The translations under genes were made by a program, and so were the position numbers. This document shows, in pieces, positions 19,609 to 31,653 of a stretch of 64,000 bases of DNA. Within the stretch, counting starts at the first letter, position 1. Every line of letters starts with the position of its first letter. Origin of the DNA: Marsupella aquatica (taxonomy: Eukaryota; Plantae; Marchantiophyta). Location: positions 7,567,241 through 7,631,240 of the forward strand of contig OZ316899.1 of assembly GCA_973895155.1 (NCBI GenBank), given 5' to 3'. The notes under the pieces are model-generated. The model made no database searches, was not told the origin of the DNA, and worked only from the letters and a program-made list of their open reading frames with translations.

Positions 19609-20142
19609 CCCTCCAATAGACAAGAACTGCGTCCAGAATCGTATGGCCAAACTGGAAAGGATCATGTGCGACATTCAGAGGAGATGGAAGGCGACTAAAG
19701 ATAAGCAAGAGAACTAGGGTCGAAGCTGGCGCGTGGACTGAAGAACTGGTGCACTGCAAAGGATCAGCCCCCTTTTTATACCCTGAGAGCTCGTCAATCG
19801 CCCGTCGCCTCCTCATCACTTATAGGCCGAGCCTTTCACGCTTGCAGTGTACCGACCACTCCGCCAGTCTGGGTCAGCGAGTGTCAGTGGCCGCCTCCCG
19901 AAGTTTGTTATACGGACCCGAGGGGGAAAGGGGAGGGCCCATTACACGCTCGCAACCCGGGCGTGCGAATGGCAACCCGCCGCCAGCCCGAATACAAACG
20001 CCCCTTATTGACTAATGATTTTCTACTCATAATGGCTACCTAAATACTGTCATTATGCTAATAATTACGGCCTAAGATACCTCTACTATGCGTGCTAAGC
20101 GTGTTTAGGCCGAATCATTTATTAGCCACCATACCGGCAACA
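19609..20142 (-). mobile_element. Truncated LTR (U3/R part) of another retroelement
   Basis: On the minus strand it starts TGTTGCCGG at 20142 and has a strong TATAAAAAGG near 19771-19781, followed by a CT-rich leader. It is cut off at the Athila-like 3' LTR. Confidence 0.5.
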
Positions 20143-20147
20143 TCACA

Positions 20148-20214
20148 GCCATACTCACATACATGCATAACATGGACAAGAGCATACACAAATACAAGAT
20201 AGTGTACCGCAACT
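20148..20214 (-). repeat. 67-bp repeat A, outer copy (identical to 20629-20695)
   Basis: GCCATACTCACATAC...GTGTACCGCAACT matches 20629-20695 at 67/67 by eye. Confidence 0.92.
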
Positions 20215-20581
20215 GAAATCCGTGAAAGACATAGTGTCATAAAACACGTAAGAACACACACAGTCAAGCCAAACCCACTCCGCAATGGAGAATCTAGCCA
20301 GGTCAAAGCTAACGGGACACCATAGCCAAGGAGCTCCACTCACTACCAAGGCTCTCCCAACGCCAAAGGCTCAACTCAAAGAACTAACCGTCCTTTGAGC
20401 CTCTCCACACTATACCCTCCAACCCTAAGGGCGGGTCCTACAAGAGGAGTCACCCTCAACAGGGCACCCCCTCTAACCCTCTACCATGGAACCAAACTCC
20501 TAACTAGGCACTACGGCCCATCTAAGGTATGGACTCCGCTAGCACACTACATAGTCTAGCACGCTACGTATGGTCATGACA
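20214..20581 (-). repeat. 3' LTR core (repeat B) of the DNMT-Gypsy
   Basis: Matches 29618-29979 with about 9 substitutions and 2 small indels. Confidence 0.92.
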
Positions 20582-20864
20582 GCTGTCGTGCGAATCCACA
20601 TCATCATACAACATACATCGCTGGTCATGCCATACTCACATACATGCATAACATGGACAAGAGCATACACAAATACAAGATAGTGTACCGCAACTCGCCC
20701 CCCTAACTGGCGGTTAGGTCCCTCTAACTCCCAGGTAGCCCTATCCATCTACTACATGCTATACACCTTCATGGGTGCATTGATCAGAAAGCCGGGTGCT
20801 ATGTTGCCCCATTGTTAATCGCCATCTGTAATCCATACCATGTGAAGATCAAGTCATCCACCTC

Positions 20865-21010
20865 CTAAGTACACCAAGGACAAACCCACCGTCCAATAGG
20901 CACAACATCAATAGGTGGAGTTAAGCATGACATATGCCAACCCCTAGAACACCTATCACAAACCAACATACGAGCTGCTTCACTAGTAGACCCACACAAC
21001 ATGCACCTCA
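20865..21010 (-). pseudogene. PHD finger at the integrase C-terminus
   Basis: CMLCGSTSEAARMLVCDRCSRGWHMSCLTPPIDVVPIGRWVCPWC is a canonical C4HC3 PHD with the conserved LxPP and W. Confidence 0.92.
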
Positions 21011-23850
21011 AGCTAGCACGTATCACTACCAAGATGGGGTCTACTGTACCATCCACGTTTGGGAGGTGACATGGCGCACAATTACGCACATGGTCCTTCC
21101 AAACAACACCATTATGACCCTCCAACATGAGAACTCCAGAAGCTAACACCTCTCTCACACGTAAGATAGTGCATCCTGCTGTCACATCCAACGTTGTTGC
21201 TGCAAATAGACATAGTCCCCCACATGGAACCTACAAATGGATGGTCGATAACCTCCACCCCGGATGGTTGCATAACGCAACGTATCTGTGTGTTGAGCAA
21301 TGGCAAGGTTCTCAAAGGCTGTTGGCATAACTCTTTGAAAGAGCTGTGCCCTTTGAGAACACACCCTCATCCACACCTCCGGGTCATCAAGGTTCACCAC
21401 CTCACTAGAATCTCAACAAATTTTTGTGGGCAAGTCTGGGTCTCAGCCGTACAACAGAAAATAAGGTGAGAAGGAAGCCAAGGATGCTTGATCATGGCAA
21501 TTGAATGTCCCAATCTCCAAGATGCCCCTTCTGTAGGCCATACTTGCATAATCCCCTCTTCACCGTCTGAACAACATGCTCTGCCAAACCATCCGCCTCT
21601 GGATGATCTCGAGATGTGGTCCGATGATCAATCAACGCCTTGTCACACAAGACCTGAAACTCACCCTGAAACTCCGTACCCTGGTCGGTCAACACCTCCG
21701 CTGGTGCACCAAAATGACTTAGCACTCTATCAAGAAATGCATACGCCGTTCCCTCACTTGCCTTGTCAGGAAATGCCACCAACTCAATCCACTTAGAAAA
21801 GTGCTCCATCATCACCAACACATACCAATGATGTCATCTAGTTAACGGTAATGGTCCTAAAAAGTCCAAACTCCAACGGTAACCCAACCCCATAATAGGT
21901 AAGGGGTGTAACTGTGGTGTAGGGGCATTGAACGATGCCCTCACCCGATCGCAAACCATACAATGTGACACCAACTGTTGCACCTGAGTGTGCATGCCAC
22001 GCCACCAATATTGACCAAGAAGTAAGCTATACGTACGCTTTACTCCAAAATGTCCCAACTCCTCATGAGCATGTCGCACAATGCGCTCTCTCTGAGCTAT
22101 ATGGGGTACCACTCGTACTCTACCATCCTCCCACACACGGAGAACATGTGTTCCCTCCAATCGGTACCTCCTAGCACGTTGGAGAACACAGTCTCGCTCC
22201 TTGGCACTCATTATGCCTGGCACCCTACTGGTCCGTAGGAACTCTAACACCAACGCATCATCATGAATATCACGCTGATCTGTAGGACCATCTCCAACCT
22301 CCGGATCTGCAAGCTGGCCATCTACCCTCTGACTAGAGGAAGGTGTAAGGTGATCCTCCATACTAGAGTTCACACCCAACAAACACAAAAAGGCAGATGC
22401 ATGCCATCCTGGCACCATCTCCTCATCAACCTCTCCATGTCATCTAGCTCCAGTATCATCCTCCTGACTAGGACATGGGTTCCTACTCAACCCATCAGCA
22501 TCAAGGTTGGTAACTCCAGGTCTATGTACCACCTGAAAGTCATACTCCTGTAAGATAAGAGCCCACCGTGCAAGCTTTCCTATAAGCTTATCAGACTCCA
22601 TCAACCACTTGAGCGGTTGGTGATCAGTAACAAGGGTAAACTCTGTGCCAAACAAGTAACACCTGAAGTGTGCCACAGCCCACACTGCTGCCAAGCACTC
22701 TCCCTTGTACGAACCATAGCTTGATTCTGCTGCATTGTTTGAACGACTTGCATAGGCCACCACAAACTCCTTGTTCTCATCATCATGTTGTGTCAACACC
22801 GCTCCAATCCCCAACATACTCCAATCAGTGTGCAGTTGAAATGGGTGACCCCGGATAGGTCTCCTCAAGATAGGCGCAGACACCAACTTGGCCTTGAGCG
22901 CCATAAAAGCTCTCTCCTGGTCATCTCCCCACTGCCACTCCTGATCAGACTTCAACAACTTGTTCAAAGGCTTTGCTGTAGCACTAAATCCCTTCACATA
23001 TCGCCGATAGTAGTTCGCCAATCCCTTGAATGCCCGAACTCTACTCACATCTGTCGGCCAAGGGATACGTGCAATAGCCTCAACCTTTGCCTGTTGGACC
23101 CCTAAACCACTTGGGTAGATCACATGACCCAAGTACTGAACATCCTCATGGAAGAACCTACACTTTCCTGGATGTAAACGTAGACCATGAGCTTTCAATC
23201 GCTCAAACACAATCTGCAAATGTTGTTGGTGCTCCTCCACAGTATCACTGAACACCAAGATATCATCAATGTAACACCGAACAAAATCCAATCCTGCTAG
23301 GATCCTGTCCATCACTCTTTGAAACTCGGCAAGTGCATTCTTCTGAAACCCAAAGGGTAAGAATTGCCACTGATACAAACAATCCTTGCCATATGAGTTG
23401 ACTCCCCAAAATGCTATCTTGGCCTTGTCACTCACTCGAATAGGCAACTGATGGTATCCTGCCCGAAGATCCAAAGTACTGAAAATCCTTGCATGTCCCA
23501 CCACATCAAAGATCTCCTCAGGTGTGGGCATGGCATACTTATCGGCCTTTGTCTACCGATTGATAGGACGGTAATCTCCACACATCCACCTCTTTGTGTA
23601 GTTGCCATGCACATCCTTTTTGACAGGCATGACAGTGACTGACGCATACTCCCCATGCGACAACTCCACTAATCCAGCCTCCAAAAGGTCCAACGTCTTA
23701 CTCCGAATCAAGTCCCTCTCCATATCACTATATTTGTAGGGACGACGAAAGATTGGCGTATCACTAGCCAAATCAATCCGTATACCAGCCAAAGCACCCA
23801 ACTCCTTCATTCTAAAGGCAAAACAACTCCTATAAGCACATAGGAATTGT
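21011..23850 (-). pseudogene. RT, RNase H and integrase of the DNMT-Gypsy, disrupted
   Basis: Motifs: CGDYRPIN, FSTLDLRAGYHQL, CYIDDILVFS, LHTDWS, VTDHQPLKWL, HEELGHFG..CMVC, WSLDF, LTDQGTEF, HPEADGLAE. Confidence 0.95.
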
Positions 23851-24169: not shown

Positions 24170-25110
24170 AAGGCTCACAATCCATGTCAAACAGTTCAAG
24201 TCCATAACCTGACCCAACACCTGGCGATGTGATGCCTCTGAAACTGAAGAGACTAATGTCACACCGGTAGGAAACCCCATAGCACGCTCTCTCTCATCAA
24301 CGTTGGGCTCCACCAACTGGCGCACATGAGAATCCCATACAAGCCCAAGACCACCATCCCTATAGGCATGTGATGAGGGAAAACTCACAAATGTAGGCAA
24401 AGCCATTCTAGGCTGCCCCACAAGGTTCAGTATTGCCATGGGTGACCTATCCACCGCTCTCACCACCTAAGAACGTCGTCCACCATCCAAAATACTATCC
24501 ACGGTGAGAGATAGAGGCCGCTGGATTGCATCATAGGTGCGCCTCAAAAGCTCCCTGGGTAACAAGTTTGTCCACCACAACAGTGGACGATGTGCACGCG
24601 AGCCCACCCTCGCTGCATCCAACAAAATAGCTGGCCCAATCCATGACCGTACCTCATGTGCAGCCGTGATCACATGAGATCTAGTATCACCCAACAAAGG
24701 GACGTTCTCCATAATGTAAGTTGGAGCACGTGCCTGATGCACTTGAAGATGACGCAACACCCGCAACATCTCCCAAAACATATGAGAACAAGGGTCACGT
24801 AACCCTCCACCATGACCAGCCCGAGTATGTCCCTGACATGGCCATCCAGCAATCACCAAATCAATAGGGCCAACCCTCTCAAGGTCTTGCGACCCAACAA
24901 TGAAATGTCTGATGGCAAACTCTGTTGATACCCCCAAATTGCGGACTGTGACAACAACTTAGGGTATCTCTGCATCATCAATGCAAGATGTCGTGATGAA
25001 ACCCTCCTTGCAGTCTCATCTCTCTCCACATACAACTACTTCCTCACAGGTATCCCGATCAGCCAAACCAGTGCTAATCCCACCAAAGAGGTCCAACACA
25101 CAAATACCCT
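24170..25110 (-). pseudogene. C5 cytosine DNA methyltransferase domain (Dnmt3-like) embedded in pol
   Basis: Motifs in canonical order: I VLDLFGGIST, II YVERD, IV IDLVIAGWPCQG, VI YIMENV, VIII GSRAHRPLLWWTN, IX ERERAMGFP, X RQVLGQVMD. Broken by a small deletion, frameshifts and stops. Confidence 0.9.
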
Positions 25111-26337: not shown

Positions 26338-27969
26338 CTACCTCCCAGCCTCACCCCTCTGTGGGTCCAACTCCACAATGGCACCACGTGGCTCTGAAGC
26401 TCTAGCTGCACCTCTCGTCAATGCAACTGATGCCTCAACTTGTGCCGCACTCGCCATATAAGAGAGATCATTGCCCCCATAAGACGTGAAAGCCCCTGCT
26501 CCCAAACCTGCTCGAGGTGGAATACCAGCCATAGTAGCAAGTTTTTGCTCCAATTGCTCAATCCTATCCGCCATAGCAGCCTCTGTTGTAGGGGGAGGGG
26601 CAGCCACTATAGGCGCTCCAACTGCTGGTGGACCTCTACCACCCCTACCACCTCTACCAGCTCCACCACCTCGGCCTCTCTGAGGTGCTCCACCACGACC
26701 TCGACCACCCATCCTCAACTCTGGGTATAGGTCAAAACAACGGTCTCGAGGATGACCTGCTCGACCACAATGATCACACTGCACCTGGGCCGACTGAGAT
26801 CCATCCTCTAAACTCCATCCTCCACTCTCCTGGGGACAAACCCTCCGGACATGATCACCTCCACATGTCCAACACACTGGTCCTTGTTGTTGGGCAGCAT
26901 ATGAAGGCAACGGTCTCTGCACACTCGGCCCTCTGGAACCTGATTGAGGTCGTGCCAAATCTCCACAACTCCCACTACTACCACCACCACCACCACTATG
27001 AGACTGTAAAGTGGCTGGCTGAACACGAGAAGTAGTGGTCATATCCCTATTGAATGCCGATGTCACTACCCTCTCCTCCACCATGTTAAGCTCAATCTTC
27101 TCAGCCAAAGCAAACACACGGGACAACGTGGGTGGATCATCACTCATCAGAGTAGCATCACGTACCCTCCTCCGCAACTCTCTGTCCAAAATCCCATACC
27201 AGAACTGGATTGCCTGCGCCTCAGTCACACCCTGGGTAACTGAAATCAAACGCCGCATACAAGTGTATGCCTCACGAAGACTCTCACCAGTCTTTCTCTC
27301 AAACTCCTGAAGTCTCCTCAACTTCTCTATCTTCACCCCCTGGTAGTTCTTCTTCAATCTCTTGAAGAACTCTATAACTGGGCTGAACAAAGGTGGAGCG
27401 CTAGTGCCTCCACTAGTGCCTCCACTGGTGCCTCCACTAGCACCTCCACTAGTGCCTCCACTAGTATCAACACCACCCTGAGTGATAGACACATAGGCTG
27501 GAGACCAATGTTGTCTCCATGCCTCAATCTCAACAGCATGGTCCTTCCGGAACTGATGATAATCATCCATGGGAGGCCCCTCCAAGTGCTGAAACAACCC
27601 CTTCCATGCCAAGAAAGGTGTAAATAATGTGGCGTTACGCAACATCTGCATATCACACCATTTATCAAACTCTTGAATGAAGTCCTCCAACTCAATGGTG
27701 CCCACTGCCCCTGAGTAATGTCGTGGGCCCTTCATGGCCCCGTACATCCCGTCCATATCCCAAATCAATGGGGCTGCTATACTGGACAATACAATTGAAG
27801 ACTTGATGTTTGGAACACCCTCGTCCTCCTCCTCATCAACTAACAGTAGTGGAAAAGGTAGCCGATACCTCAATCCACTCTGTGTAAAACCACCAATGTA
27901 TGCACCAAGGTCCCCAACAGGACCACCAAACTGCTCCGTGATGACAAGCCGCAACAGCACCACCACCAA
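26338..27969 (-). CDS. Gag of the DNMT-Gypsy (open 543-aa frame)
   Basis: GESLREAY retrotransposon-gag motif, two CCHC knuckles (CWTCGGDHVRRVC; CDHCGRAGHPRDRC), RGG-rich tail, and a 12-bp tandem (GGTS)n at ~27401-27465. Start codon uncertain. Confidence 0.85.
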   Translation of the reverse strand: MVVVLLRLVITEQFGGPVGDLGAYIGGFTQSGLRYRLPFPLLLVDEEEDEGVPNIKSSIVLSSIAAPLIWDMDGMYGAMKGPRHYSGAVGTIELEDFIQEFDKWCDMQMLRNATLFTPFLAWKGLFQHLEGPPMDDYHQFRKDHAVEIEAWRQHWSPAYVSITQGGVDTSGGTSGGASGGTSGGTSGGTSAPPLFSPVIEFFKRLKKNYQGVKIEKLRRLQEFERKTGESLREAYTCMRRLISVTQGVTEAQAIQFWYGILDRELRRRVRDATLMSDDPPTLSRVFALAEKIELNMVEERVVTSAFNRDMTTTSRVQPATLQSHSGGGGGSSGSCGDLARPQSGSRGPSVQRPLPSYAAQQQGPVCWTCGGDHVRRVCPQESGGWSLEDGSQSAQVQCDHCGRAGHPRDRCFDLYPELRMGGRGRGGAPQRGRGGGAGRGGRGGRGPPAVGAPIVAAPPPTTEAAMADRIEQLEQKLATMAGIPPRAGLGAGAFTSYGGNDLSYMASAAQVEASVALTRGAARASEPRGAIVELDPQRGEAGR

Positions 27970-29606
27970 ATCACCACCACTAATTAACCAAGTAACGTCG
28001 ATGTTGCGGTTTACTCTAGCCCTAATAGCTACATGGGTGTGGGCAACCTAACCTGTCATCACCACAAGCAACCTCCCATGGTCTACTGGTCATTACTCCA
28101 GTCTCACCGTGAGAGAAACATAGGTAGTCCGATTGGTCATCACTCCAGCCTCACTACTGGCAGCACACTGGAGTAAAACTACTTCGGAAATCAGCGTCAG
28201 CCCTAACAATGGGCGCGCAAGCAAGAAGCATCAATGGAGGGGATCCAAACACAGGAAGTCCAATGACAACCCTCCAATCGCAAATGAAATACAAAACGGA
28301 AATCAAGGTAACACAATCCACCAACCGTGGCGCCCCCTGAATCCACAAAACAAACCACACAATCCTAATGCAATGTAGCTACTCCGCTAGTAGTCTATGA
28401 TGTGCTCCTTGCACTCCCAGCATTTGATAATGTCACCTGCATGGAAATGCTATCCACCACCACCCGCTAGGAATCCCAAAATGGGTCCTAACGCAACCTA
28501 AAACGATGCATATATGGGGAAAACGTCCAAATATTACACCAATTCCTCTAAGGCAGTCTATACACTAGCAGAATTCAGAACCTGCCAGTTAAGCTTCTTG
28601 TAGGCAGAATAGGGCAAAGATGGGTGACCAGTTATGCAACACAATACTCACAGAAACTACTCACAAATCTGCAAAACTATCTCACGCCCAAGCTTGCTTG
28701 CTTGCTCCCTTACTCCTTTTCTCCCCCTCTCACGCCCACTCACCCCGAGCTACCACGAGTTGCCTCGAAGCCTCAAAACGCCGAGAAATGCTCGAGACAT
28801 GCCCCTTTCGCCCCAACTTGCTCTGCCACGCTACGCTACGAGCAAAGCGTCCCCAACATGCAGGTTTGCTATCCACCATAGCCAGGCCTTGAGCTAGTCC
28901 ACAAAATTTTGATCTCTGATTACTCCGTGAATCCTCAACGAAAAATGAATCTGTCTAGACCAGGATTCAATTGGCCACCATAGATATCTCTCAAAAAGAA
29001 ATCAACTACAACTGAGGTCTGTACTTTGAGCTAAAAATCGGACAACATTTCGGCCTATACATTTCCGAAAGCACAGCGCTTTTGCTCATGATCTATGAGC
29101 CACAACTAGGACAGCGCTTTCGCGCCACTGATCACACAACACAGATCTGCAACTCTGTCATCCAGATCTACTACCAACGCACTGAAATCCGGCAGCGCTT
29201 CCGCATAGATTCATCAATACAGAAATCTGCATCGGTCCCTCTCTAAACAACAATTCGCTCCACACCAGAGCTAAATAGTTCTGCACGATTGAATTGATGT
29301 TGCAAATCAGACAAAGATCAACATCAAAAACCTCTCACCCGATCTGGATGACTTCCAAGAGAGCTTTCGCACTCAAGCTTTCCAAATCTGAAAAACCGTC
29401 GAACACAAACCAGATTCTTCATTCTTCGATTACTTCCAACTCGCTTGACCAAACCAGGCGATCTTTAGTGCGTTGGAAAGCTCTCAGCAATGCGCTTCTT
29501 CCCCACCCATACACGGACCAGATCCACAATGTATCCATGGCTGATGCTATCAAGCAGCCCACCAGATCCTACTGATCTCCGATCGAAGTTACAATCGATC
29601 ACTATG

Positions 29607-29617
29607 AGTTCTTTGAG
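29607..29617 (-). promoter_or_regulatory. Self-priming PBS: 11 nt complementary to an LTR-internal sequence
   Basis: On the minus strand CTCAAAGAACT directly follows the 5' LTR. Its complement AGTTCTTTGAG lies in the LTR at 29785-29775, 26-29 nt downstream of a TATA (29814-29811). No TGG tRNA-type PBS. Confidence 0.8.
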
Positions 29618-29979
29618 TGAAATCCGTGAAAGACATACTGTCATAAAACACGTAAGAACACACACAGTCAAGCCAAACCCACTCCGCAATGGAGAATCTA
29701 GGTTGAAGCTAACGGGACACCATAGCCAAGGAGCTCCACTCACTACCAAGGCTCTCCCAATGCCAAAGGCTCAACTCAAAGAACTAACCGTCCATTGAGC
29801 CTCTCCACACTATACCCTCCAACCCTAAGGGCGGGTCCTACTAGAGGAGTCACCCTCAACAGCACCCCCTCTAACCCTCTACCATGGAACCAGACTCCTA
29901 ACTAGGCACTATGGCCCATCTAAGGTATGGACTCCGCTAGCACACTACATAGTCTAGCAGGCTACGTATGGTCATGACA
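29618..29979 (-). repeat. 5' LTR (repeat B) of the DNMT-Gypsy
   Basis: Direct repeat of 20214-20581; TG...CA ends. Confidence 0.92.
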
Positions 29980-31653
29980 TCTTCCTTTGGACTTCTTCCC
30001 CTTCGCACTCTGATACTGAAGCAAATGCATTTGATGTTCTGAGATTTCTGGATCGGATTTCAATCGGATGGGAACACCATCAGGGCCAACCCATGTGCAT
30101 TAGCTACTTGGACAATGACAGTAAATATAAAAACAGGACAAGGAGCAACAACCTTTTGGCAATGGTATACCCAACTCCAAATATCAATAGCACTTAAAGT
30201 ATCTCTTCTTCGTGGAAAGGAATTCTGTAATCATAAGAAACAAAAGTATAGATGGGAAGAAAGGGCAGTCCACTTCCCGCTGAACAACTGGTGGCACAGG
30301 ATCCATCATAACAGCAAAAGGATAAGCCAATTCCTGAATAGCTTGGGTGAATTCAAAATTCATCTCAACAAGGTTTTGTTTCTTCAAATCAAGGGAACCT
30401 GGAGCTATAACTCCAACTGGTTCAGCAAATACACATTGTGGCATCCTCTGTACTTTTGTTGAAGTTGAATCTGGTACTGCAGGGCTCTTCTCTTCAATTG
30501 TAGTCCAAGCAACTGTAAATGAGGAAGAAGGATCTACTTGAGCGTTTGTTGTGGTGGCCTCATCATCAGCAACAGGTTTGAGTGGAGAATTGAATGGTGT
30601 CTCCTCTAGTGAATCAGCATCATCATGAGAAACTTCAATTGAAATTGGAGAAGCAGGTAGGGTATCTGCAATTAACTCCATCACTTCGTCAATAATCCCT
30701 TCCTTCTCACAACCGAGCAATTACATCAGCTGAGCAATAAGTGGAAACTCTAATGCGTGATCAGCATCCGGAGGTGTAGTAGATGTCTCTAACAGGGGAT
30801 GAAACTGGTGACATGGGTGGGGGTGATAGTGAGGATTCCCCTCTGAACGGTAAAAACTCTAAATGTAGCGTTCTCTCCTCATCTGCTGTAAAGCAATTAG
30901 TGTGATGATAAATGCAGGCCAAGTGTGGTGCAATATTAAGTGCATAAATCAAAGTGGACTTTGCTTTCTAATCTCACAACTACATCATGGGAAATCTGAG
31001 CCCAATTAATCAGAGTGGCCAGTGTCAAGGAAATCCTGGTCCTAGCTTCAAGATTCAAAATAGGAATGAGGAAAGCTAACAACGGTTTCAAATGTTAAGT
31101 CTCCAAACAATGCTCAACTCTCCATCCATTCCTGGTGACCCACTCTTCTCTTTGAGAATAAGATTCAACTTCACTTCTCAATTCTCCATTGGGATCACAC
31201 AATCCTTCACCTTCGGCTGGTATCTTATACACTTCAGCATTCAACGATTTAGTCCACTTCACAGGCCTAGCTCTGTTCTTTGATCTTACAGCCGGTTATT
31301 TGCTTATCAAATCCGTGAATAAACTAGACTCAATTACATGCCAAGGAAAATCCAATAGAGATTGCAAACCCATCAATGCCAAATTCTCTTGTGGATTCTC
31401 CTTCATCTCTGGAACTTCAGGAATTTCTACAAGCACCGGTCTAGACTTTGGCATTTGAAATGGTGTTGCGCCTTTCGTATTCTCTCTTGCTCTGCGGCCC
31501 TTCATGCGCGCCATCGCTGCTGAAATAGAAATGGAAATTCACAGTGTGCGCCTCGGCAATCCAAGTACAAGTAGTGCCCTTTGTAACTGTGTAGTGTCTG
31601 ACAGCAAGCCTCCGTCTCTTGCTTTTCAATCTTTTCAGCCGACTTGTGAACAA
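29980..31653 (-). pseudogene. Old remnant of a retrotransposon accessory ORF
   Basis: Reads ..AEVYKIPAEGEG..NGWRVEHC..LLAFLIPILN..TRISLTLATLINWAQI.. followed by an acidic Pro/Ser-rich tail. Same motif pattern as accessory ORF B (17100-17620). Many stops. Confidence 0.5.

Follow-up and report, generated by a model that had tools for sequence, protein, structure and literature searches.

A conserved putative self-priming site in a split-repeat, DNMT-carrying Gypsy family from a liverwort

Background

In the fission-yeast retrotransposon Tf1, the mRNA pairs through its first 11 nt with the primer-binding site, and RNase H cuts after nucleotide 11; retention of the self-primer has reportedly been seen in this element. 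To our knowledge, self-priming has been shown experimentally only for Tf1-type elements of fission yeast. Elements with split direct repeats, such as DIRS/Ngaro/PAT and TOC1, rely on a tyrosine recombinase and are not known to duplicate their target.

For plants, the main text of Neumann et al. (2019, PMC6317226) gives self-priming as predicted for 12% of elements, chiefly in the Tcn1 clade of mosses and club mosses, which groups with Tf1/Sushi, and in TAR copia elements, and in no other plant chromovirus group; that main text makes no mention of liverworts, PHD or methyltransferase. A passage in Novikova et al. (2010) states that no site was found in SM-Tcn1. Gypsy elements carrying a DNA methyltransferase (DNMT) were first described in Klebsormidium, as KnitGypsy-Dnmt3, in the main text of de Mendoza et al. 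(2018, PMC5890265), where their repeat structure is called 'the same as that of a DIRS retrotransposon' (A-coding-B-A-B); a passage of a 2026 preprint (10.64898/2026.05.21.726589) names the group 'streptophytes (Gypsy-DNMT3)'. The main text of PMC5890265 has no occurrence of 'PBS' or 'primer binding', and the primer site, the termini, the target duplications and the junction anatomy are therefore undescribed in that main text. Our full-text literature search, which covered main texts, turned up no study of how DNMT-Gypsy elements are primed.

Results

Anatomy and relatives of the element

The window, a stretch of 64,000 nucleotides of Marsupella aquatica DNA, holds a retroelement of about 9.8 kb on the minus strand, running from 29979 to 20148. 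Stop-to-stop frames and Pfam matches give the coding order gag, DNMT, reverse transcriptase (RT), RNase H, integrase and C-terminal PHD finger, all on one strand:

26341 to 28047, minus strand: gag remnant with CCHC knuckles, a stop-to-stop frame with no Pfam match in which the CCHC motifs were read by eye
24470 to 24958, minus strand: C-5 cytosine DNA methyltransferase fragment (PF00145, E 1.9e-8), inside pol and upstream of the RT
22443 to 23552, minus strand: reverse transcriptase and RNase H (PF00078, PF17917, PF17919)
21495 to 22439, minus strand: integrase, H2C2 zinc finger and DDE core (PF17921, PF00665), interrupted by a stop codon
20868 to 21230, minus strand: PHD finger at the C-terminus of the polyprotein (PF00628, E 1.7e-10)

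All coding parts are broken by stops or frameshifts, of which there are many, and the window copy is therefore dead.

The DNMT piece had 42 matches spanning 50-85% identity, and most of these liverwort, moss and metagenome relatives lie at 59-78%; the genera named among them are Calypogeia, Marchantia, Sphagnum and Riccia, all liverworts or mosses. For the RT-RNase H piece the closest named proteins come from Marchantia (83% identity) and Calypogeia (81%). Next are Gypsy proteins that bear a PHD finger, some with a DNMT and some without; they belong to Closterium, Klebsormidium (49-56%), Chara, Volvox, Pleodorina and Tetraselmis. The best 120 of its 3,309 matches come from liverworts, charophytes and chlorophytes, with a few from seed plants or animals at 34-45% identity, and none of these 120 is named as fungal. 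PF00628 is annotated in many of the 120, and the chromodomain family PF00385 in one Haematococcus protein only. A PHD C-terminus was likewise found by translation in five metagenome relatives, and some relatives carry PF00145 and an RT in a single protein; a search of viral contigs with the RT returned no relative. With the DNMT assigned at the level of PF00145, these relatives place the element in the DNMT-carrying Gypsy group first described in Klebsormidium. Like KnitGypsy-Dnmt3 it has a DNMT inside a Gypsy pol and DIRS-like repeats; its closest named relatives are liverworts.

The first-pass annotation of this DNA had linked the element to the Tf1/sushi/Tcn1 group. That link did not hold up. 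Chromoviruses carry a chromodomain at the position where this element has its PHD finger, and because a PHD finger and no chromodomain was found there, membership in the Tf1/sushi/Tcn1 clade is not supported by these sequences. The element further differs from Tf1/sushi in the DNMT domain in pol and in having its nearest RT relatives in the green lineage. The family does not resemble the chromoviruses of Tf1/sushi/Tcn1 type.

A putative primer-binding site and its complement

Four features at the 5' end of the element bear on priming:

29618 to 29979, minus strand: 5' repeat A1 (TGTCATG...GGATTTCA), an LTR-like unit with promoter, R and U5, 95.7% identical to 20214-20581
29607 to 29617, minus strand: putative primer-binding site CTCAAAGAACT, directly adjoining A1
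29775 to 29785, minus strand: R block AGTTCTTTGAG, the predicted first 11 nt of the transcript and predicted self-primer, complementary to CTCAAAGAACT
29811 to 29814, minus strand: candidate TATA box with predicted promoter function, 26-29 nt upstream of the predicted RNA start

In minus-strand orientation, A1 ends in GGATTTCA at 29618 and the site follows at once. The first-pass annotation had placed the site, its complement and the TATA correctly, and its description was accurate: CTCAAAGAACT is an exact 11/11 complement of AGTTCTTTGAG just after the 5' LTR, and the complementary block begins at 29785, 26-29 nt downstream of a TATA at 29814-29811 (context GGTATAG). The pairing in fact reaches 12 bp, since T 29774 can pair with A 29618, the base that ends the repeat. 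In the whole 9,833-nt element the complement of CTCAAAGAACT occurs only twice, once per repeat. A minimum-free-energy fold of the putative leader is closed by the helix between the site and the R block, with pair probabilities of 0.74-1.0 for nucleotides 1-11.

The same annotation had reported no tRNA primer-binding site, and the site lacks the mark of one. Sites complementary to the 3' end of a tRNA are marked by TGG, and this one begins with CTC. An Rfam search of 29300-30100 gave no match. The window and 42 relative loci, scanned with ARAGORN, contained no tRNA gene to compare with the site.

Conservation in a second lineage

To collect relatives we scanned metagenome contigs with the DNMT alignment; 156 of 213 matched stretches were confirmed as relatives, and the best 80 of these 156 were kept. 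Sixteen of the 80 were compared with the element at locus L025, and all of these proved 79-96% identical to it in nucleotides, mostly 82-94% per aligned piece. The element in the window represents a separate lineage: its repeat end is only about 74-81% identical to that of the metagenome relatives, and its leader cannot be aligned with theirs after the site. We aligned 32 repeat copies from relative loci with the two window copies; five pairs of loci sample the same insertion twice (L010/L025, L031/L023, L070/L072, L005/L006 and L008/L026).

The common form in the relatives is TATAAAG, 13 nt, then CTCAAAGAAC-ATA-GTTCTTTGAG-TTGAGCC, and the repeat end CATTTTCA is followed directly by CTCAAAGAACT. 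The site comes next after 26 of the 32 copies (5'-type); five lead into block B either directly or after an insert (3'-type), and one into other sequence. The site is exact in 14 of the 26 5'-type junctions and has one substitution in 7, several changes in 2 and disrupting indels in 3. Despite the low identity of the repeats, the R 11-mer is the same in the window and in most relatives, while the loop beside it differs (GGTT in the window, ATA in the relatives). TATA(A)A is kept about 31 nt upstream in most of the 32 copies, with a T-A step at the predicted start. The first-pass annotation had named conservation of the complementarity in relatives as a test of its proposal; both 11-mers and the TATA spacing are kept in this second lineage, although its repeat is only about 78% identical.

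Contigs of four public sequencing runs at a likeness of at least 80% to the window (84, 455, 8 and 930 contigs) told a similar story for the site. None of the best-supported 40 of 90 variant places in these contigs falls inside either 11-mer. Among the 24 runs listed with matches to the element, none is recorded as RNA. Run contigs part from the window exactly at 29606/29607 (X3, 8; X8, 1; X9, 16 (low agreement)), and in a second comparison six X3 contigs diverge at that same step. Likeness between sublineages thus ends exactly at the 3' edge of the site 11-mer, and the same 11-mer therefore has at least three unrelated leaders behind it.

Covariation between site and R block

We compared the R block with the site in 19 copies, those of the window and of 18 loci. 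The comparison left out the 5' copy of L066 together with L061, L009, L029 and L047, where the R block is deleted or replaced, and L062, L005 and L006, where the site is broken by indels. Site and R block pair in 198 of the 209 cells; 10 of the 19 copies are fully paired, 6 of them perfectly and 4 with one G-U. R position 1 is A, T or C among copies, and departures from the common form are mostly transitions, as expected because the copies are decaying. An RNAalifold consensus of 15 leaders retained the closing helix.

The compensatory changes that the first-pass annotation had suggested looking for were found in part. Two changes on both sides keep the pair in L057 (T-A to C-G and G-C to A-T) and one does so in L058, while a both-sided change in L043 breaks it. 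When sites were shuffled among copies, the observed pairing was reached in 5% of 20,000 trials (p about 0.05, borderline). The copies form one decaying family plus the window lineage and the covariation comes from one sublineage, so that the signal in these alignments appears weak but positive.

A hairpin upstream of the predicted start

The first-pass annotation had missed two features of the element: a third copy of the motif, which gives rise to a hairpin shortly before the predicted start, and the split direct repeats treated below. The third copy is as follows:

29790 to 29799, minus strand: left arm of the U3/R hairpin, degenerate in A1 (CTCAATGGAC); the family form CTCAAAGAAC equals the site

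In the relatives, CTCAAAGAAC precedes the R block at a short distance; it matches the site completely and forms a 10-bp inverted repeat with R. The left arm in A2 of the window reads CTCAAAGGAC. Variants that restore CTCAAAGAAC at 29794 and 29792 are the major letter at both places in X3, X8 and X9, and at 29794 only in X2. The arms are kept across the difference in loop sequence between the window and the relatives, and the palindrome is deleted in five copies.

Because the TATA lies just 15 nt upstream of the left arm, the arm would be absent from RNA that starts in A1 and present in its 3' copy. We speculate that the arm in U3 masks the 3' copy of the primer sequence. The R block can also pair with this left arm, and its conservation may in part serve the hairpin rather than priming; this is our chief ground for caution.

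Split repeats, termini and joints

The 3' part of the element is built from the following pieces:

20695 to 20704, minus strand: polypurine tract AGGGGGGCGA, adjoining B1 upstream, with a presumed role in priming
20584 to 20694, minus strand: B1 (20694-20629) and x1 (20628-20584); the end of x1, ...GACA, is the right terminus of the family
20575 to 20590, minus strand: x-GC-A junction CACGACA-GC-TGTCATG, a near-palindrome formed where the element's right end meets its left end
20214 to 20581, minus strand: 3' repeat A2, 95.7% identical to A1 over 371 nt and carrying the same internal block
20148 to 20213, minus strand: B2, an exact copy of B1, following A2 as CA-GTTGCGG and cut at 20148 by another repeat

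Block B thus measures 66-67 nt, and its two copies, one after the polypurine tract and one directly after A2, are 100% identical (67/67 with the preceding A). In the relatives the full layout is A1, site, internal region, polypurine tract, B-x, GC, A2, joint, B-x. These DIRS-like split repeats (A-int-Bx-GC-A-Bx) were found in the window, in seven relatives and in the run contigs. A polypurine tract precedes B in all 10 one-unit relatives (A-int-Bx) and in L025, L066 and L002; variant tracts among those 10 are ...GGGGGGTGA in L029 and ...GGGGGGAAA in L074.

The inserted termini are TGTCATG... at the start of A and ...(C)GACA at the end of x, and the left boundary TGTC is the family terminus in the relatives. 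Exact 4-bp target duplications flank six of the eight relatives in which both ends were present:

L025: AAGG
L066: TCTC
L008: CACA
L023: TGTT
L029: TACA
L057: TGTG, assuming a shifted and mutated TCTC start

The duplication is 3/4 in L054 and there is none in L058. For the copy in the window, whose 5' flank ends in AAGA, no target duplication was found, because B2 is cut at 20148 by another repeat; contigs have loose ends at 20147, and depth is very high across 20020-20094. In the window lineage, contigs leave the element at the A of GACA (20584/20583) and run into diverse flanks (X2, 9+3; X3, 21; X1, 14+3). These contig ends together with the family termini indicate that the internal x-GC-A junction is a right end abutting a left end. 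In L025 it is a perfect 16-nt palindrome, CATGACAGCTGTCATG.

The joint between A2 and B2 varies among copies:

Window: CA-GTTGCGG
L060 and run contigs: CA-GTTGTGG
L025: CA-ATTGTGG
L066: CATTTTC + 18-nt insert + GA + GTTGTGG
L008/L026: CA + CTCAAAGAA(A/T)T + GCTA + GTTGTGG

In the window, L060 and the run contigs, A2 is bluntly joined to the base that comes first after the polypurine tract. In L008/L026 the sequence between A2 and B2 is exactly the 11-nt site followed by 4 nt similar to the end of that tract. These joints look like the two ends of a conventional cDNA joined together, one at the boundary between A and the site and the other at the first base after the tract. The DNA end that they define lies precisely where priming on the 11-mer would put it; in this respect A terminates like a cDNA. 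A copy from a tRNA primer is 18 nt long, and the retention of 11 nt and not 18 nt fits a short self-primer.

Ten of the loci with enough 3' sequence are one-unit and seven are two-unit, the window being the eighth two-unit copy. The mirror permutation, Bx-GC-A-site, was found in 0 of 24 copies. We considered a plain LTR with Bx-GC-A at both ends and rejected it, all 24 A copies before a site having unrelated upstream flanks. Random opening of a two-LTR circle at either palindrome is disfavored by the lack of any mirror form in 24 copies against eight two-unit copies.

Discussion

Probable self-priming and its alternatives

The conserved complement at its TATA-defined place and the evidence from the joints together make Tf1-like self-priming the best reading of this site. 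The fold-back mechanism proposed by the first-pass annotation thus stands, at the level of a predicted start, on conserved pairing, a sharp edge and an 11-nt insert at one joint. We think it likely that 29617-29607 is a primer-binding site and that its primer is the 5'-terminal 11 nt of RNA from the element itself, with a predicted start at about 29785. Coincidence is a very improbable explanation. Short complements do occur in shuffled sequence: among 20,000 mononucleotide shuffles of the repeat, with three start offsets allowed, 548 gave a match of 8 nt and 116 a match of 9 nt, but only 13 (about 6.5e-4) reached at least 11 nt, and the real match is kept across lineages, at the TATA-defined place and with sharp boundaries. 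A genuine site could instead be served by a host RNA, such as a tRNA fragment or half or a small RNA, with a 3' end equal to the R block, which would then mimic the host RNA or be unrelated to it. Half-tRNA primers are known in plant copia lineages according to the main text of PMC6317226. We nevertheless hold a host primer to be improbable here, since an exact complement lies at the predicted RNA start in both lineages and since the R block of L057 has changed along with its site, which a host primer would not require. The site also lacks a TGG start, and the 11-mer has GTTC followed by TTT, which is unfit for the conserved T-loop with its consensus GTTCRA.

The three copies of the motif, in the left arm of U3, in the R block and just after the repeat, might also form a structural signal, with minus-strand priming taking place elsewhere. 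Candidates are a promoter-proximal hairpin, a strand-transfer or circularization signal in a DIRS-like cycle, and a palindrome that binds a protein. Such a signal would explain why the left arm and the R block form a conserved inverted repeat around a loop that differs between lineages, and the DIRS-like split repeats (Fig. 4c legend of PMC5890265) imply an unusual cycle. It would leave unexplained why the joints of A and B set a cDNA end exactly at the boundary between A and the site, one of them keeping exactly 11 nt, why the site and the polypurine tract occupy the canonical places of a pair of priming sites, and why the R block of L057 has changed in step with the site and not with the left arm. 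On balance we judge a purely structural role unlikely.

Under self-priming, transcription would start about 29 nt after the TATA, and the 5' end of the RNA, AGUUCUUUGAG, would fold back over the 168-nt R-U5 onto CUCAAAGAACU. RNase H would cut after nucleotide 11, and the freed 3'-OH would prime minus-strand strong-stop DNA, which would jump to the copy of R in A2; plus-strand synthesis would begin at the polypurine tract before B. Here the start site is predicted from the TATA spacing, and cleavage and the identity of the primer are taken over from the Tf1 model, to which the element is likened from its sequence.

Comparison with known elements

As in Tf1 and Tf2 of Schizosaccharomyces pombe, a tRNA-type site is absent and an 11-nt block adjoining the 5' LTR can pair with the start of R, which is a predicted start here. 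The occasional copy of the primer site at a cDNA end (L008/L026) likewise resembles what is reported of the unremoved self-primer of Tf1. Unlike Tf1/sushi, the element has an extra copy of the site in U3 that pairs with R, and its repeats are split (A-int-Bx-A-Bx). With the plant Tcn1 clade, as the main text of PMC6317226 describes it, it shares a Ty3/Gypsy affiliation in a non-seed plant, the lack of a tRNA site, a site complementary to the LTR and predicted self-priming; Tcn1 elements are described as having a chromodomain with an aromatic cage, in contrast to the PHD finger here. The layout A1-int-B1A2-B2 and the internal junction of right end against left end are those of DIRS/Ngaro/PAT and TOC1, from which the family differs in its DDE integrase, its TGTC...GACA termini and its 4-bp duplications.

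A possible permuted replication product

The split-repeat architecture implies that the replication cycle of this element is not fully conventional. Topologically, the inserted two-unit form would equal a two-LTR circle, with Bx-GC-A as the LTR, opened at the palindrome of the 5' LTR; the one-unit copies may come from one-LTR circles or from recombination between Bx copies. We tentatively suggest, as a possibility about which we remain doubtful, that this DDE-integrase Gypsy element inserts a circular permutation of the expected product of reverse transcription. The site and the polypurine tract would define a conventional cDNA with long repeats Bx-GC-A, and the joining of its ends would give the variable joint of A and B, which once kept the 11-nt copy of the primer site. 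Integrase would then insert a molecule opened at an internal palindromic att site (...GACA-GC-TGTC...), producing the 4-bp duplications, and the extra site copy in U3 would, as an anti-primer hairpin, mask R in its 3' copy. If true, this would account for the 'DIRS-like' split repeats without a tyrosine recombinase.

Conclusions

The mechanism is a known one, and what appears to be new is its description in a DNMT-carrying Gypsy family; self-priming having already been predicted for moss Tcn1 elements in the main text of PMC6317226, the novelty is modest. A clean and conserved signature of self-priming in a liverwort DNMT/PHD Gypsy family would widen the known range of the mechanism, and the site anchors the replication logic of a puzzling family with split repeats. 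The most interesting point is that the predicted cDNA ends and the ends actually inserted do not match: with the site and the polypurine tract fixed, the former are expected to differ from the latter, and this mismatch opens to testing the question of how split direct repeats arose in an element that bears an integrase.

Arrangement of the element and its ends

The DNMT-Gypsy element is built of split direct repeats in the order A1-int-PPT-Bx-GC-A2-joint-Bx, where A1 and A2 are the 5' and 3' LTR-like repeats, B is a 66-67-nt block present in two copies (B1 and B2), x is the stretch that follows B, and PPT is the polypurine tract upstream of B1 (window 20148-20704 and 29618-29979; L025:1679-10805, one of the metagenome loci with relatives). 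Compared with the cDNA predicted from the polypurine tract and the primer site, the 11 nt immediately after A1, the inserted form looks circularly permuted. Its termini are TGTCATG...GACA, and the target duplications are 4 bp. At the internal x-GC-A junction, a 2-nt spacer parts the right end of the element from its left end, and the resulting CATGACA-GC-TGTCATG is a perfect or near-perfect palindrome (window 20575-20590; L025:10338-10366); the spacer in L066 is AT. With right end facing left end across 2 nt, this junction resembles that of an LTR circle.

A second high-copy repeat (window 20020-20147) adjoins B2 at 20147/20148 and removes the 3' end of the element. Depth in three sequencing runs (X1, X2 and X3) is very high over window 20020-20094. 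About 25 nt beyond B2 on its downstream side, within apparent flanking repeat DNA, there is an AATAAA at window 20120-20125 that is probably outside the element.

The inverted repeat at the U3/R border

A conserved inverted repeat spans the U3/R border in the window (29775-29799) and in the relatives, with a loop that varies by lineage; in the family form, its left arm is the same sequence as the primer-binding site. Deletion has removed the palindrome from five copies.

Variant copies

Ten loci (L023, L029, L033, L034, L049, L054, L056, L057, L058 and L074) hold one-unit copies, A-int-Bx without A2-Bx. Duplications of 4 bp, exact or matching at three of four positions, flank four of the five such copies with both ends visible. 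They were either inserted in this form from the start or arose by recombination between the two Bx units.

In the element of L008 and L026, the joint between A2 and B2 (L008:13080-13110; L026:5680-5710) keeps an exact copy of the 11-nt primer site, followed by GCTA, which is similar to the end of the polypurine tract. Unrelated sequence takes the place of the U3 part of A2; this 3' repeat is a recombinant. A rearranged copy is seen at L013:6003-6260 and L027:6013-6270, where the PPT-Bx region stands in inverted orientation directly beside a 5' repeat cut to its last few bases; auto-integration or a nested event may have produced it. Elsewhere, a different LTR element, whose 786-nt LTRs are 94% identical, is nested within a DNMT-Gypsy copy (L050:1398-9228).

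The polyprotein C-terminus

The polyprotein ends in a PHD finger (window 20868-21230) that is kept in relatives, and the corresponding domain, PF00628, is widespread among green-algal and charophyte Gypsy relatives. This is the place where chromoviruses carry a chromodomain.
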